From Bacteroidota bacterium (GTDB lineage Bacteria; Bacteroidota; Bacteroidia; Chitinophagales; LD1), in assembly GCA_016722375.1 (NCBI GenBank), contig JADKJG010000008.1:33081-97080 (forward strand): 64,000 bases of DNA. Reading direction: 5' to 3'. Under the pieces are notes generated by a model. It did no database searches. It was not told where the DNA came from and saw only the letters and a list, made by a program, of their open reading frames with translations. The translations under genes and the position numbers were made by a program. Positions 6,612-64,000 of the stretch are shown here, one piece after another. Numbering within the stretch: the stretch's first letter is position 1; each line of letters opens with the position of its first letter.

Positions 6612-6760
6612 CCTTAAGGAAAAGAAGGAATTCCTTAAAGGAAAGTCTCTTTTCCTTAAAGGAAAATTACTTTCTCTTAATGATTGATACACGATTCCTT
6701 AAAGGAAAGCCTCCGTTCTTTAAGGAATTGCAGGAATCTCTTAAGCAAAAAGGAGATTTG
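6612..6760. repeat. 21-bp phased degenerate tandem array (CCTTAA word)
   Basis: CCTTAA-like anchors start at 6612, 6633, 6654, 6675, 6697, 6718 and 6739. The array contains the palindromes TTCCTTAAGGAA and AAGGAATTCCTT. Confidence 0.8.
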
Positions 6761-14091: not shown

Positions 14092-15546
14092 CTATTCCAT
14101 CAGATACTTAACATCCTTAACAATAATCCAAGCATCTTCATCTGTAATTTCTTTATAGAATAATTTTTCATTAAAGTATCCAAACACGTTTATCTGTTTA
14201 TCTGAAATCATTACTTTCCTTTGTAAAATGTAAGATTGGGGAATATATTCAAAATAATAAGTTGGACCTTTGGAAAGACCCCCAACCATTATAACTTTTT
14301 CAATATTGGAATAAACAATGTCAATCCAATTACTTGACGGACTATTATTAAAATGAGTACTGTCAAGGCCTGTCAAACGGACGCTATTATGTTTATTGAA
14401 GAAATAAAGAGTTGGGTCAACGTTAAAAACAAAAAAAGGCTGGTTTATCATATACCCGAAATATCCAGTATACGCAATTCGATATTTTGAGCTACTATTC
14501 TTAATGGGAAAATAATCTGGGTAGCTTAAATTAAATACGTTCTCAAGTTTTAGCCCATCTTTTGTAAAGTAATATTGAGCAATTAAAGAATCATTATTCT
14601 CTGAACTTGTCATCATCAATAATGTATCACCTCGGACAAAAATAGTATTGAGATAATTAAAAACATTGCCACTTCCAGGAATTGAATAATGTAATGAATA
14701 TACCTTTTCAACAGTAAGGTCTAAACTTAATTGGGCTATATACGGAGCGTGATACCATCCTACATCCCCATTTGGACTTGCCTTTTCAATTAAAAACGTT
14801 AGAGGCAAATAAATTTTTTGGTTTTTAAAAATTGGCGGCATGATATTAACCCTATTACCCATTTTTGAATCTATTCGATCTGTTGCAAGAACGTTGCTTG
14901 CTTGCTCATTTGAGTCTAGCATTACACATTCTTTAATAAAAAGTTGAATGGAATCTCTTAGGAAGTTAAAGTTATATGTCTTAACTAATTTTCGTTTCTC
15001 AACATCTATACAATATGTATTTGAATTCAGGTCGTTTGTAATGTAGATGTAGCCGTCGTCTGCAAGATTAAATTTTGTTCGTTTCGTGCCAACGTATTTA
15101 CTTACATCAATGGTGTCATCAATAAAAGATGAAATAATATCCACAATAGTATCACCTACTAATGAATTTTTAAAATCAGAACTCCAAAGAATTTTTTCAT
15201 TTTTCAGAATAAATACCTTAGAAACTATCTCTGGGTTTAAACAAGAAAATAAACTGTCATTAATTATTACTGTATCAATAGGCGATATTTTGCCAATTTT
15301 AGTAGAGACAAATTCGGTCTTTATTCTTTTAGGCACATTTCCTAATAGGAATACTACAGGATACTTTCCATATAATTGTTGATAAGCATTCGATGCGCCT
15401 ATATAACAATTAAAGCAATCGTTACCATAAATAGTAAAAACTACGGATACTGGCTTTTCTTTTCTCAGATTGAAATCTAAGCAATCTGACTGTCCATAAA
15501 TTGAAAGACCAGTAACCAAAAAAAAATAAAAAAATACACTCCTCAT
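14092..15546 (-). CDS. secreted hypothetical protein: CxxC-containing N-terminal module plus beta-propeller-like body
   Basis: 484 aa with a signal peptide (MRSVFFYFFLVTGLSIYGQ) and VVFTIYGNDCFNCY (beta-strand then CxxC, thioredoxin-like). The remainder is beta-rich. The coding sequence is visibly AT-rich. Confidence 0.6.
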   Translation of the reverse strand: MRSVFFYFFLVTGLSIYGQSDCLDFNLRKEKPVSVVFTIYGNDCFNCYIGASNAYQQLYGKYPVVFLLGNVPKRIKTEFVSTKIGKISPIDTVIINDSLFSCLNPEIVSKVFILKNEKILWSSDFKNSLVGDTIVDIISSFIDDTIDVSKYVGTKRTKFNLADDGYIYITNDLNSNTYCIDVEKRKLVKTYNFNFLRDSIQLFIKECVMLDSNEQASNVLATDRIDSKMGNRVNIMPPIFKNQKIYLPLTFLIEKASPNGDVGWYHAPYIAQLSLDLTVEKVYSLHYSIPGSGNVFNYLNTIFVRGDTLLMMTSSENNDSLIAQYYFTKDGLKLENVFNLSYPDYFPIKNSSSKYRIAYTGYFGYMINQPFFVFNVDPTLYFFNKHNSVRLTGLDSTHFNNSPSSNWIDIVYSNIEKVIMVGGLSKGPTYYFEYIPQSYILQRKVMISDKQINVFGYFNEKLFYKEITDEDAWIIVKDVKYLME

Positions 15547-15557
15547 CAGAATAGATT

Positions 15558-16263
15558 TTATTCAGGGTGAATAATACTTGAAATAGCTTCCAAACTTGTT
15601 AGCCCACCCATAGATCCCCTAGGAATTTTTGCATAACGAATGCACCAACTGGGACTGGGTGTACATTGGATATAATAAAACTCGCTTCCCGGTTCATGAA
15701 CATAGCTGCTAAGGGTTCCATAAACTTGAATTTCTTGAGCAGGGCCATACAAACTTTTGTAATGATTATATTCAGTTTCTGTCATTGCTTGGTGATATAT
15801 TGTGTTGCGGAGAGAAATATAGCTATTAGCTGATTCAGGTACAGGATTATCAGATGCTACACTAACAGAAATAGATACATACCCTGTGTCTCCAATTAAA
15901 GATAAAAAGTCAGATGGGAAATTTGCTATCTGATTAATCTTAAAACAAATTTCTTTAGAAGGTAAGCATTCAATAATAACTGTTGCATCGCCAGGTCCTG
16001 ATATATTATTTAATCTGCCAGGGATATCAACAGGGGGTTGAAGCAATTCCTGCTTGACCGTCATTTAAAAATACGCCTGTTGATATAAGTGAGGTTCGTG
16101 TTGGGCACTGCTGCATAATATTACAAGCAGAATAATATGTTGTATTAATACTTGGCACGTAAACTTGTTGGACTATTTGTGACGCTCCGTCTTCTTCAAG
16201 CCCTTGTGCCTTTAATATTACAATCCCTAATAAGAATACGGAAATCAATGCTCTTGTTTTCAT
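15558..16263 (-). CDS. secreted Cys-containing hypothetical protein, split across two overlapping frames
   Basis: ORF 16027..16263 carries the signal peptide (MKTRALISVFLLGIVILKAQG). ORF 15558..16064 continues in another frame with a 38-nt overlap. This is either one frameshifted gene or two genes. Confidence 0.4.
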
Positions 16264-16327: not shown

Positions 16328-16370
16328 TTTTTTTTAAAAAAACCTTCCAAGTCTTTAAGACTTGGAAGGT
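16328..16370 (-). terminator. rho-independent terminator after the 16380..17072 gene
   Basis: A 12-bp perfect stem: ACCTTCCAAGTC (16342-16353) pairs with GACTTGGAAGGT (16359-16370). On the minus strand it is followed by T7. Confidence 0.85.
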
Positions 16371-16379
16371 TTCAATCCG

Positions 16380-17072
16380 TTACGCAATCACTGCCGAAAA
16401 AACCTGAGAGAAAGGGCCAAACTCTCCGCGAGTGTTTTTATAGCGCACGAGATAATAGGCCAGTTTGCCTACGTCTTCCATATTGTGTTCGATGGTAACG
16501 AGGTATCTGCCGGTGCTGGCTACGTGGTGAAAATCGTTCTCGGTCAAAGGTGGCAACGAAGGGGTGGTTTCGAGCACGGACGGTGGCACGGGCCGAATGG
16601 CTTTATACACCTCTACGCTCTGCACTCCTTTGGGTTTAGCATGCGAGTTAGGGTCATCGGGGTTTTGAAAACGCAGCGTGTGGCTGCGGTGAATAATCTT
16701 GGCAACAGAAACCACCGGCGCATTGGTGGGTTTGCCCGAAGGGGTTGGCTCGTGGTCAGCATCTTCGAGATGCAGAGTTGTTTTGTCGTTTTCATTCAGC
16801 AAACTTCTTGGAATGTTTGCATAAATATCTCTAAGAAGCACTTCCGCATCCACTCTCGTTTGATTTTTCTGGTTGGTGACGGTCGTGGTGTTCGTGTCCG
16901 GGTTCACGCTTCGCGGAAAAACGTCGTTCCAAGTCACAATAATACCCGACAGCGAACTTGTTTTAGAAGGGTCTATCATCAGTCGGGCTTCGTTAGAACT
17001 TAAATAAGGACTAGCGATGTTGAAATAAACGCTGAATTCAGCGTCTTTTGAAGGGAAAATACCTTGTTCCAT
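16380..17072 (-). CDS. hypothetical protein
   Basis: 230-aa intact ORF with its own terminator and no signal peptide. The C-terminal half is beta-rich (YYLVRYKNTRGEFGPFSQVFSAVIA). No family recognised. Confidence 0.6.
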   Translation of the reverse strand: MEQGIFPSKDAEFSVYFNIASPYLSSNEARLMIDPSKTSSLSGIIVTWNDVFPRSVNPDTNTTTVTNQKNQTRVDAEVLLRDIYANIPRSLLNENDKTTLHLEDADHEPTPSGKPTNAPVVSVAKIIHRSHTLRFQNPDDPNSHAKPKGVQSVEVYKAIRPVPPSVLETTPSLPPLTENDFHHVASTGRYLVTIEHNMEDVGKLAYYLVRYKNTRGEFGPFSQVFSAVIA

Positions 17073-17128
17073 GTTAAATTGTGGTTTTTTGGTTAAAAAA
17101 TAGAGAATCGAGATGTTCTGAAAAGAGA

Positions 17129-17422
17129 GAATGAAGCATTCATTTTGAAGAATGAGTGATTCATTTTGAGAAATGCCGCGCCAATTTCGAAAATGGAGGC
17201 CTCCATTCCTGCTCGCGAGTTTCTCGCGAGTACTCGCGCGTTGCTCGCGAGCAGGAATGAGTGACTCATTCCTTGAAATGAGCGGCTCATTCTTGGAAAT
17301 GAAGCCTCGCCAAGCAGAAATGAAAGACCCGCAAGCACTCGCGGGACTCTCGCGAGGCCTCGCGAGAGTCCCGCGACCACTCGCGAGCGACTCATTCTTT
17401 GAAATGCGAAAGCTATTTCGTG
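17129..17422. repeat. 21-bp phased palindromic array (GAATGAG and CTCGCGA words)
   Basis: Fourteen consecutive exact 21-nt units. There is a 34-bp perfect palindrome at 17341-17374, and a 12-bp inverted repeat CCTGCTCGCGAG (17208-17219) with CTCGCGAGCAGG (17244-17255). Confidence 0.9.
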
Positions 17423-17825
17423 GAATAATTCAGCCGCAACAAGCAGCGAGCTACTGCATATTATAAAAGGGTATTGGGGGAGGAGGGCAGTTAAATGACC
17501 TACCTTAGCACCACGAGTAACCGGTGTTTCAGAGGGGGAAAAAGAATTTTTGTTTGTAGAAAAAACCATTTTGTGCAAATGAATTCCTTATGTATTCTAC
17601 AACGAAAATAATAGATAGAGCCAAACCTCCTAATATTTGTTAAGGGGAATTCAAGGTGATTTTTGTCAGGCTTTATGTTTTAATTATTTACCCCTGCGAG
17701 ATTAGATAAATGGGCAAGTATAGTTTCTGCCAGAGGTATTGGCATGACGACGGGATTTAAAAACCGCGATAGAGTAACCTTCGTAAAAAGTAGAGACCCA
17801 GTTCCGCAGGAACTGTCTTTTATTA

Positions 17826-30803: not shown

Positions 30804-31350
30804 CCCCATTCGCCCCCAAATCAACGCGCTTCCACCAGCGCCAAACGCGTTTATGGCTCAGCTCAATGCGGTAATAGTAGAGATTTCGCCTTGGTTGGTG
30901 ATTACCTTTCCAATATTAATATAAGAACCAGCGCCTGTTTGCCGCAGGCAGGTCAACAACCATCTGTTTATTCCTGTTGGTGAAACCAACACCAACGGGG
31001 CGAAGAAAAATTACTTCCCATCCTGATTGATTGAGCCGCTGGTTTGATTAAAACAGCGGAGGTTTTGATTAGAAAAGCGGATGGTGTGATTGATAAAGCA
31101 AATGCTGTGATTAAGATAGCGGAAGATATGATTATGAATGCCGCTCTTATGATTAAGAAAGCGGCATTCTTGATTAATATAGCGAATGCTTTAATCACTA
31201 TAGCGGCTACTATGATCAAGATAGCGAAAGATGTAACCGATATAACGGCTGATTTGATTGATATAGCGGGGAAATTGATTAAGAATCGGGGGATTATTAT
31301 TGATATTCGGGGGAAAATGATTGATATTCCGGGGATTATTGTTGATAATC
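30804..31350. repeat. composite 21-bp phased array: ACGCG-word head, then the GATT word
   Basis: The head has ACGCG-like anchors at 30824, 30845 and 30866. GATT anchors then fall at 31025, 31046, 31067, 31088, 31109, 31130, 31151, 31172, 31193, 31214, 31235, 31256 and 31277, and after a 25+17 nt slip at 31319. Confidence 0.85.
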
Positions 31351-32056: not shown

Positions 32057-32410
32057 CCCCATTTCCCCCCCCAAATCAACGCACTTCCACCACCGCTAAG
32101 CGCGTTGATGGCTCAGCGCAATGCGTTATTGGCGGAAAGTAGCGTGCTACTGGCTAAATGTAACGCGTTAAAAATGCGGTGACAACGCGCTAACGGCTCC
32201 GCGCAACGCGCTATCGGCTGAGCTAAACGTGTTACCACAGGAGTTAAACGCACTACTGGCGGAAATCAACGCACTTGCACCAGCCGTAAGTGCGCTTAAA
32301 TTGAAAATCAACGCGCTTGCCTCGGCCATAAGTGCGCTTAAATTCAAAATAAGCGCTCTTAAATCAAAAATAAGCGCGCTGAAAGGGAAAATTAGCCGAT
32401 TTATCCCCGC
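32057..32410. repeat. 21-bp phased array (ACGCG/GCGCT word)
   Basis: Sixteen anchors: 32079, 32100, 32121, 32142, 32163, 32185, 32206, 32227, 32248, 32269, 32290, 32311, 32332, 32353, 32374 and 32395. The head (32057-32137) is about 85 percent identical by eye to 30804-30884. Confidence 0.9.
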
Positions 32411-32594: not shown

Positions 32595-32667
32595 TGGTGT
32601 GGGAGGGAATTGAACCCCCGACACATAGATTTTCAGTCTATTGCTCTACCAACTGAGCTACCGCACC
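32595..32667 (-). tRNA. tRNA-Phe (GAA)
   Basis: The 73-nt cloverleaf was read by hand: acceptor GGTGCGG/CCACACC (one C-A mismatch), D arm GCTC-AGTTGGTA-GAGC, anticodon stem ATAGA/TCTAT with loop CTGAAAA, T arm GGGGG-TTCAATT-CCCTC and discriminator A. CCA is not encoded. Confidence 0.9.
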
Positions 32668-49031: not shown

Positions 49032-49344
49032 TAATCCGTTTTTGCGGCAGGCTTGGTTATTTCATCAACAGGCTTGACTATTCCTGCGGCTGACTTCCCT
49101 ATTTTCGTGGTGAATTGTCCTATTTCTCTAACAGACTTCCCTATTTTCATGGCAGAATGTCCTATTCCCATCGTCAAATTACCTATTTCCGTGACGGACT
49201 TAGGTGTTTCTGCAACGGACTTAGGTATTTCTGCGGTGGACTTCCCTATTTTCGTGGCGACTTGTCCTATTTCTGTCACGGACTTGCCTAATTCCGTCGC
49301 GGTTTTGCCTCATTCTGCGACAGAATGAGTCTGTGTATTTGCGG
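49032..49344. repeat. 313-bp element: 21-bp phased array (CCTATTTC word) with conserved ends
   Basis: Anchors fall every 21 bp from 49056 to 49308 (CCTATT at 49098, 49119, 49140, 49161, 49182 and so on). It is collinear with 63683-63995 at a constant offset of 14651. Confidence 0.92.
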
Positions 49345-49574
49345 AAAATCAACTAATTAACAGAGAAATGCGAAAAAACGGCATGTTATTGCCATTTGTC
49401 TTCATATTTAATGGGGAATTAGAAGACGGCAAAACTATATACGTAATGCAGTCTATCCATCATGGATATTTGGTATAGGATAGAGGGAATTCTATTATTG
49501 ATAAATGTCAGAGTTCTTTGTAAGGGATATGCGTTGTGCCACTGACCCAAAAACAAGGGTGCATTAAAGTATGA

Positions 49575-63682: not shown

Positions 63683-64000
63683 TAACCTGTTTTTCCGGCA
63701 GGTTTGTCTCTACCCGCAATAAACCAGACTATTTTTACGGCAGACTTGCCTATTTCTGATACAGATTTCCCTATTTCCACGGCGAGTTTGCCTATTTCCA
63801 TCTCAGAAATAGCTATTTCCGTCGCAGACTTCCCTATTTCCGGGACAGACTTACCTATTTCTGCGCCGGACTTAGGTATTTCTGAGATGGACTTCCCTAA
63901 TTCTATGATGGACTTCCATATTTTCGTCACGGACTTGCCTATTTCTGCCGCGGTTTTGCCTATTTCTGTGACAAAAACAGTCTGGATATTTGCGAAAAAA
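63683..64000. repeat. second copy of the 313-bp CCTATTTC-word element, reaching the window edge
   Basis: Anchors fall every 21 bp from 63728 to 63959. Both ends match the 49032-49344 copy. Confidence 0.92.

Follow-up and report, generated by a model that had tools for sequence, protein, structure and literature searches.

Non-coding tandem repeats that keep a constant unit length of 20-21 nt (and also of 52 nt) and are variable in sequence have been described in bacteria by Subirana and Messeguer (PMC8161180, PMC6749651). As to their role, polymerisation of a protein on the DNA, stabilisation of the nucleoid, or the supply of small RNAs has been proposed, without tests (PMC8161180), and since their appearance in print in 2019-2021, neither a function nor a partner has been assigned to the repeats with a 20-21-nt period. 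In this study, we are discussing an array of this kind, which is located at positions 17129-17422 of a 64,000-nt stretch of a Bacteroidota genome (in the following, “the window”) and lies upstream of a minus-strand gene (16380-17072) encoding a 230-aa protein. Like the published repeats, the arrays of this genome are numerous, intergenic and non-coding, have one period in common while differing in sequence, include periods of 40-42 nt, and are patchily distributed between related species. In most of the published arrays, however, a short motif is conserved in all units, and array 17129-17422 lacks such a motif. Neither dyad-symmetric units nor a partner gene family, an upstream position or an even spacing along the chromosome is described in the two papers on constant-length repeats (PMC8161180, PMC6749651), in which the string “palindrom” occurs only within the expansion of the term CRISPR. 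The array, hence, matches the published constant-length class, to which it adds features that have not been described for the class.

Within the phylum, the closest counterpart in the literature is BrickBuilt of Porphyromonas gingivalis, a minisatellite within a MITE with a 23-nt unit and 19 copies belonging to one sequence family (Klein et al. 2015, PMC4596501). It is composed of leader and tail subunits with inverted-repeat ends, and promoter activity has been reported for it (PMC4596501). BrickBuilt and the arrays discussed here are both found in Bacteroidota, are intergenic, spacer-less and a few hundred bp in length, and are situated close to gene starts. Array 17129-17422 differs from BrickBuilt in its period of 21 nt, its singleton status, its private words and the lack of a common leader or tail; for the first three of these reasons, an assignment to the BrickBuilt MITE was rejected.

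Phased operator, centromere and iteron arrays, such as ParR-parC of R1 and pSK41, the omega heptads of pSM19035 and the plasmid iterons, are a further group of related systems. These typically comprise 4-10 units of one sequence, with sites of ~10-22 bp that share a helix face and immediately precede the controlled operon, and a known RHH or HTH binder is encoded adjacent to them. With these, array 17129-17422 shares the private sequence, the upstream position and a unit size that would fit a dimer, whereas it differs from them in its 14 units, in its two co-varying words, in the lack of a recognisable DNA-binding gene nearby, and in being one of ~170 arrays. In type III toxin-antitoxin systems (ToxIN, CptIN, TenpIN), 34-45-nt units in 2-6 copies are combined with a toxin of the endoribonuclease fold. 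Here, the likeness concerns the location of the array directly upstream of a ~200-aa gene and the individual repeat sequence of each pair; the present gene product is, however, a helical bundle plus FN3 protein, and most arrays are without such a gene. Since the 230-aa fold is not that of a ToxN/AbiQ endoribonuclease and PADLOC returned no match, an assignment to the type III systems was rejected.

As one of many, array 17129-17422 is ordinary; the interest lies in the class being unexplained and in the unusually clear and testable view of it that this genome provides. The locus adds three testable handles, namely a gene family that accompanies such arrays in several families of the phylum, an even and non-random distribution of the arrays on the chromosome, and dyads with co-varying half-sites, which restrict the readers that come into question to a dimer, a binder specific for structure, or base-pairing. 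The data establish array 17129-17422 as a real, non-coding array under phase constraint, as a member of a genome-wide class, and as the cis partner of gene 16380-17072, with a position that is conserved relative to the gene family. The reading that we prefer, with slightly less than even confidence, is that the array is a phase-locked, spacing-dependent DNA lattice, which would act as double-stranded DNA and lie upstream of the promoter from which the gene is transcribed. Since 21 bp equal two, and, thus, a whole number of, helical turns, all units would face the same side of the helix. Along the ~300 bp, a protein reader or the intrinsic shape of the DNA would assemble cooperatively, and this assembly may set the expression or the local topology of the downstream gene.

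Repeat anatomy and dyad symmetry of array 17129-17422

The tandem array at 17129-17422 (294 bp) consists of 14 units with a period of 21 bp, which is also the period returned by TRF; each unit is made up of an imperfect 17-nt dyad (8+1+8) and a 4-nt linker. In an earlier note on the sequence, fourteen exact 21-nt units had been described. This register was confirmed, with “exact” applying to the period: there are zero indels between the units despite a mean column identity of 56%, and only column 5 (G) is invariant across all 14 of them. The contiguous 21-mers do not show the repeat/spacer partition of a CRISPR layout, and at the gathering score, Rfam 15 matches nothing in the window, the array included, except for a tRNA at 32595-32667.

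Two half-site words can be distinguished, word A (AATGAG/CTCATT) and word B (TCGCGAG/CTCGCGA). Units 1, 2, 7 and 8 are of the A-A′ type and units 5, 6, 11 and 12 of the B-B′ type, while units 9 and 10 (A-B′) and unit 13 (B-A′) are hybrids of the two words, and units 3, 4 and 14 are variants. The claim that most units are self-complementary is valid for ~9-10 of the 14, which form good dyads, and does not extend to the three hybrids. The individual palindromes that had been pointed out are present, namely GAATGAGT-G-ACTCATTC at 17255-17271, AATGAGC-G-GCTCATT at 17277-17291 and AATGGAGGCCTCCATT at 17192-17207, and CCTGCTCGCGAG (17208-17219) recurs in reverse-complementary form as CTCGCGAGCAGG (17244-17255).

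On a larger scale, a 34-bp palindrome had been reported at 17341-17374. It is perfect, but its full extent is 38 bp (17339-17376). The 17-mers of units 11 and 12 are exact reverse complements of each other, and the GGCC linker that joins them is itself self-complementary. With its centre at 17357.5, this palindrome is the core of an imperfect palindrome of ~78 bp, in which hybrid unit 10 pairs with hybrid unit 13. A second imperfect palindrome of array scale spans 17129-17334; it is centred at 17231.5, on the GTAC linker between units 5 and 6, and 42 of 60 positions are complementary. The two dyad centres are separated by 126 bp, corresponding to six units, and this distance matches a 126-bp higher-order repeat that is evident from the direct-repeat families D1 and D2 (spacings 21 and 105). 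Given that hybrid units 10 and 13 are mirrored across the 38-bp palindrome, the long-range symmetry exceeds what would be a by-product of self-complementary units. Under negative supercoiling, the two long palindromes may extrude cruciforms.

The array is identical in contigs of four wastewater or activated-sludge metagenomes from two studies. Variants in unit number were not found among these contigs, all of which end within 17276-17370, around the long palindrome; hence, assemblies of such arrays may be systematically fragmented.

For an assessment of the symmetry, the 14 units were treated as an alignment, with the dyad as its structure. Standard pairs account for 72.3% of the unit cells, in comparison to 58.6 ± 3.1 in shuffles (reached in 0 of 500), and for 30-45% of the cells if the partner is slid. 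Changes on both sides of the dyad are present in 26 cells versus 12.5 ± 2.7 in shuffles (again 0 of 500), and from this excess of double-change cells it follows that the left and right halves of the units co-vary. Measured against column-permuted arrays, the dyad has a z of 6.4, which is the top value among the 171 arrays with this period in the genome. The predicted folding is, inevitably, extreme as well, with -155.7 kcal/mol (z = -10.0) for the RNA fold of the sense strand and z = -7.6 for the single-stranded DNA fold, so that the hairpin potential behind the earlier suggestion of cruciforms or a multi-hairpin RNA leader is real. In its length of 17 bp and in its symmetry, each dyad resembles an operator for a dimer; as two half-site words co-vary within units, hairpin or cruciform pairing fits better than a single sequence-specific dimer.

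The fold and the covariation of the half-sites are also what would be expected of a structured RNA, transcribed either together with the gene or ahead of it. Folded into several hairpins in a row or into two long ones, such an RNA would serve as a leader, as a decoy, or, perhaps comparable to type III antitoxins, as a repeat RNA that is processed. Compensatory unit variants in the arrays of two relatives (L010 and L006) point in the same direction, as do the G-U-compatible mismatches, which in 15 dyad-type arrays preceding family genes number 128 on the sense strand versus 82. This sense-strand excess, however, stems from a few arrays (10 versus 5 at the level of arrays) and is absent from array 17129-17422, where G-U-type mismatches (9 versus 11) show no strand bias. 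Moreover, about half of the sister arrays are without a significant dyad, and 37 arrays are located between convergent genes. The RNA leader is, thus, not favoured, while the folding potential itself stands; further evidence on this point comes from the region preceding the gene.

Open reading frames run through the array on both strands (17093-17578, minus; 17173-17466, plus), and the peptide SRGLARVPR is, as had been noticed, present in both translations. A heptad-repeat protein encoded by either of these ORFs would be consistent with the minus-strand ORF ending 20 nt before the gene and with a metagenome contig on which a 140-aa gene has been called 18 nt upstream of the closest homologue (46% identity). 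Any stop-free 21-nt unit yields open frames, though, and the near-identity of the peptides from the two strands is solely due to the palindromes. No Pfam match was obtained for the array ORFs, all six frames are closed in 80 of the 171 arrays, and among the 28 arrays upstream of family genes, 17 are without an open sense frame. A coding function for the array was, therefore, rejected and is considered extremely improbable, and the 21-bp arrays of the genome are mostly not coding.

The downstream gene and the region preceding its start codon

As had been stated, the array is 57 bp away from the start of the gene at 16380-17072 (minus strand), the ATG of which is at 17072. According to a confident AlphaFold (AF2) model with a pLDDT of 95.3, the 230-aa protein consists of a helical bundle (residues 10-99) and an FN3-like beta-sandwich (residues 120-228). 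Foldseek searches with this model returned known-structure matches to the FN3 half only, a nucleic-acid-binding fold was not found by structure comparison of the model, and the N-terminal domain, with a pI of 4.6, is acidic. No match for the protein was returned by Pfam, NCBIfam, PHROGs or PADLOC; its relatives in metagenomes amount to 975 representative clusters of ~215-245 aa. A search of genome contigs with the single protein did not find a relative. Comparison by hhalign of the profile of the metagenome relatives against a paralogue family in the genome (51 ORF hits, corresponding to ~45 genes after fragments had been set aside) resulted in a probability of 96.6% and an E-value of 4.7e-10. 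The protein is, thus, a remote relative of this ~45-gene family and a divergent member of a helical+FN3 superfamily.

Directly after the stop codon, a hairpin is present at 16328-16369 (minus strand; CCTTCCAAGTCTT / AAGACTTGGAAGG, followed by a T run), which, as read from the sequence, resembles an intrinsic terminator; it is not among the calls of a consensus terminator scanner. Array, gene and putative terminator would make a self-contained unit of ~1.1 kb. Downstream of this hairpin, at window 14092-16064 (minus strand), are two genes encoding proteins of 484 aa and 168 aa, for which there is no convincing Pfam and no PADLOC match, the 168-aa protein having only a sub-threshold Pfam match (E 0.007). 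In ten congeners possessing fabH, gene 16380-17072, its neighbours and the array are all absent within 6-7 kb downstream of fabH; one of the ten has an unrelated array at 5.9 kb. As the genes for the 484-aa, 168-aa and 230-aa proteins are all missing at this site, ~14.0-17.4 kb of the window is regarded as a variable region.

Between the array and the ATG, at 17091-17102 (minus strand), lies the motif TATTTTTTAACC, 19-30 nt before the ATG and followed by an A-rich leader, which is a candidate promoter or initiation element. It occupies the same position in the homologues L005, L008 and L010 and in several paralogues, and TTTTAA[CT]C is found within 45 nt of the start in 9 of 56 superfamily genes as compared to 22 of 2970 others, amounting to a 22-fold enrichment. 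A sigma-54 -24/-12 promoter (TGGCAC-N5-TTGC) was not detected upstream of gene 16380-17072, nor was the strict sigma-54 pattern in any of 57 superfamily genes. With the motif and the A-rich leader intervening between array and ATG, the promoter probably lies downstream of the array, and transcription of the gene would start there. None of the RNA runs that were searched covers the locus, and a metatranscriptome selected via the ribosomal genes yielded no reads for it.

The conserved location of this motif downstream of the array, in several homologues, is a further argument against the structured RNA, as are the missing Rfam match, the dissimilarity of the protein to ToxN and its lack of a match in PADLOC. 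In view of both the folding and covariation data and these objections, an RNA function is considered unlikely. A role as leader or as cruciform, as it had been put forward for array 17129-17422, has candidate status only by inference.

Comparison with relatives supports the tie to gene 16380-17072 that had been proposed from the proximity of the two features. All 13 homologues fetched from other genomes, i.e., nine from congeners (23-34% identity), three loci in the genome of another family and one from a further family, have an array with a period of 21 or 42 bp at their 5′ side. The unit sequences of these arrays are mutually unrelated, and several of the arrays have dyad units along with the compensatory variants already mentioned. 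Within the genome, an array is present at a distance of up to 700 bp upstream of 26 of the 51 paralogue ORFs and downstream of one, the background being 7.6%. Gene 16380-17072, hence, belongs to an uncharacterised family, the members of which are nearly always accompanied by an upstream 21-bp array of their own; such a module of array and helical/FN3 gene was not found in print.

Viewed from the side of the arrays, 32 of 171 are located within 1.3 kb of a superfamily gene, with 29 of these 32 upstream of the gene. For the other 139, there is no superfamily gene within 1.3 kb, and arrays also occur in sampled regions that are devoid of superfamily genes. Given these 139 arrays and those between convergent genes, control of family promoters cannot be the general role of the class. 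The prevalence of arrays without a family gene is, furthermore, an argument against a simple operator model, as are the acidic N-terminal domain and the absence of a recognisable DNA-binding gene nearby.

The class of 21-bp arrays in the genome

In a lag self-match scan of the whole genome (3.55 Mb on 17 contigs, 42.7% GC), 171-179 arrays were obtained at lag 21. The numbers for lags 42 and 63 are similar, with 193 and 185, whereas lags 20 and 22 gave three and two arrays, respectively. The median length of the 21-bp-period arrays is 275 bp. Comparison of the 171 arrays by blastn resulted in 73 sequence families (with 18, 18, 14, 8, 7 and fewer members), 43 of which are singletons, so that 128 arrays fall in families of 2 to 18 copies. 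In this comparison, array 17129-17422 is a singleton, without a leader or tail in common with other copies, and its words occur essentially nowhere else in the genome when set against the vocabulary of the other arrays. Dyad symmetry, on the other hand, is a class property of the 21-bp arrays of this genome, with 80 of 171 being symmetric at p<=0.05 versus 8.6 expected from the column-permuted null.

The distribution among relatives is uneven. Lag-21 arrays are absent from 400 kb each of three congeners (G012:C2, G024:C11, G021:C1), for which ~19 would be expected at the array density of this genome; in three members of the order that belong to other families (G039:C2, G046:C1, G058:C1), 6, 10 and 1 were counted, respectively. 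The array class is expanded in particular lineages and, considering the three congeners without any array in the sampled 400 kb, is dispensable.

These data bear on the possibility that the arrays are selfish or neutral minisatellites of the BrickBuilt kind, which would have arisen by slippage, inverted duplication and dispersal and would themselves be functionless. Such a reading is kept alive by the multi-copy families with a conserved tail, among them an 18-member family with a tail of ~170 nt like that of BrickBuilt (PMC4596501), and by the lineage-specific burst, with 48 arrays per Mb in this genome versus none in the three congeners; in array 17129-17422 itself, the 126-bp higher-order repeat and the reverse-complement neighbour unit point to duplication events. 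It is, however, at odds with the singleton status and the private words of this array, with a period that has remained free of indels despite heavy divergence of the units, and with a position before one gene family that, unlike the sequence, is kept in different families of the phylum; neutral minisatellites would, in addition, not be confined to 21 bp. A purely selfish or neutral origin is, on balance, rated as distinctly improbable.

The 18-member family has a unit of ~GACTTCCCTATTTCTGCGACG and ends in the conserved non-repeat tail, which is composed of a terminal hairpin, CTCATTCTGTGACAGAATGAG, followed by TAATTAACAGAAAAAC and by more inverted repeats. Its sites are window 49039-49480 and 63713-64000 (C8:82119-82560 and C8:96793-97080) as well as 16 other loci in the genome. 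From the leader/tail anatomy, similar to that of BrickBuilt, it seems that array and tail were dispersed together, as one unit, in some of the families. Other arrays with a 21/42-bp period in the window are located at 31040-31347, 32184-32396 and 6631-6680; their units are unrelated, and palindromic cores, e.g., TAAGCGCGCTTA and TTCCTTAAAGGAA, are found in some of the other arrays of the window.

Chromosomal placement and array geometry

For an analysis of spacing, back-to-back array doublets were merged, resulting in 165 sites with a median spacing of 16 kb. The smallest gap between any two of these sites is 5,095 bp, while random intergenic placement leads to 19-21% of spacings below 5 kb and, in 1000 simulations, never to less than 10%. 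The coefficient of variation (CV) of the spacings is 0.57 versus 0.93-0.96 in the null, the minimum of which is 0.75. With respect to gene orientation, 43 arrays are at divergent, 37 at convergent and 85 at co-directional junctions, compared to 469, 469 and 2071 such junctions genome-wide; divergent and convergent junctions together, thus, account for 48% of the arrays versus 31% genome-wide (chi-square p = 7e-6). Signal peptides are not in excess among the genes neighbouring arrays (26% versus 28%).

The over-dispersion of the 165 sites, none of which are less than 5 kb apart, keeps alive the reading of the arrays as elements of chromosome architecture, i.e., curved or cruciform-prone DNA by which supercoils are absorbed or domains delimited. 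Promoters of the helical+FN3 family would then exploit the array structure, and the association with this family would be secondary. This reading is also in line with the enrichment at divergent and convergent junctions, with a period of two helical turns, and with the 38-bp perfect palindrome of array 17129-17422. A core architectural role is, nevertheless, made unlikely by the three genomes of the same genus without arrays in 400 kb each, and the predominance of arrays in families of 2-18 copies looks like recent spread and not like ancient placement. Taken together, we regard this explanation as quite unlikely.

The DNA-lattice reading of array 17129-17422, which we prefer, is supported by the specificity of the period (179 arrays at lag 21 versus 3 and 2 at the adjacent lags), by the indel-free period, by the non-coding status and by the link to the helical+FN3 genes. 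Further support is provided by the dyad excess in 80 of 171 arrays, the balance of G-T mismatches between the two strands of array 17129-17422, the position of the motif between array and ATG, and the identity of the array in metagenomes. Extended to the whole genome, the ~165 sites might be evenly spaced, phase-locked and privately sequenced elements that are read by a geometry- or structure-sensing factor, with the helical+FN3 proteins as outputs or partners; we give this broader proposal a slim chance only. If true, an array set that is read by its geometry would be an undescribed way to organise or insulate a bacterial chromosome, recently expanded in this lineage.

Besides the 21-bp period, a weaker second periodicity at multiples of 9 nt was observed in the genome, with 26-35 regions at lags of 9, 18, 27, 36, 45 and 54. 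In one of the congeners without 21-bp arrays (G012:C2), 10 regions were found at lag 18 within 400 kb. The regions with a 9-nt-multiple periodicity are probably coding repeats.
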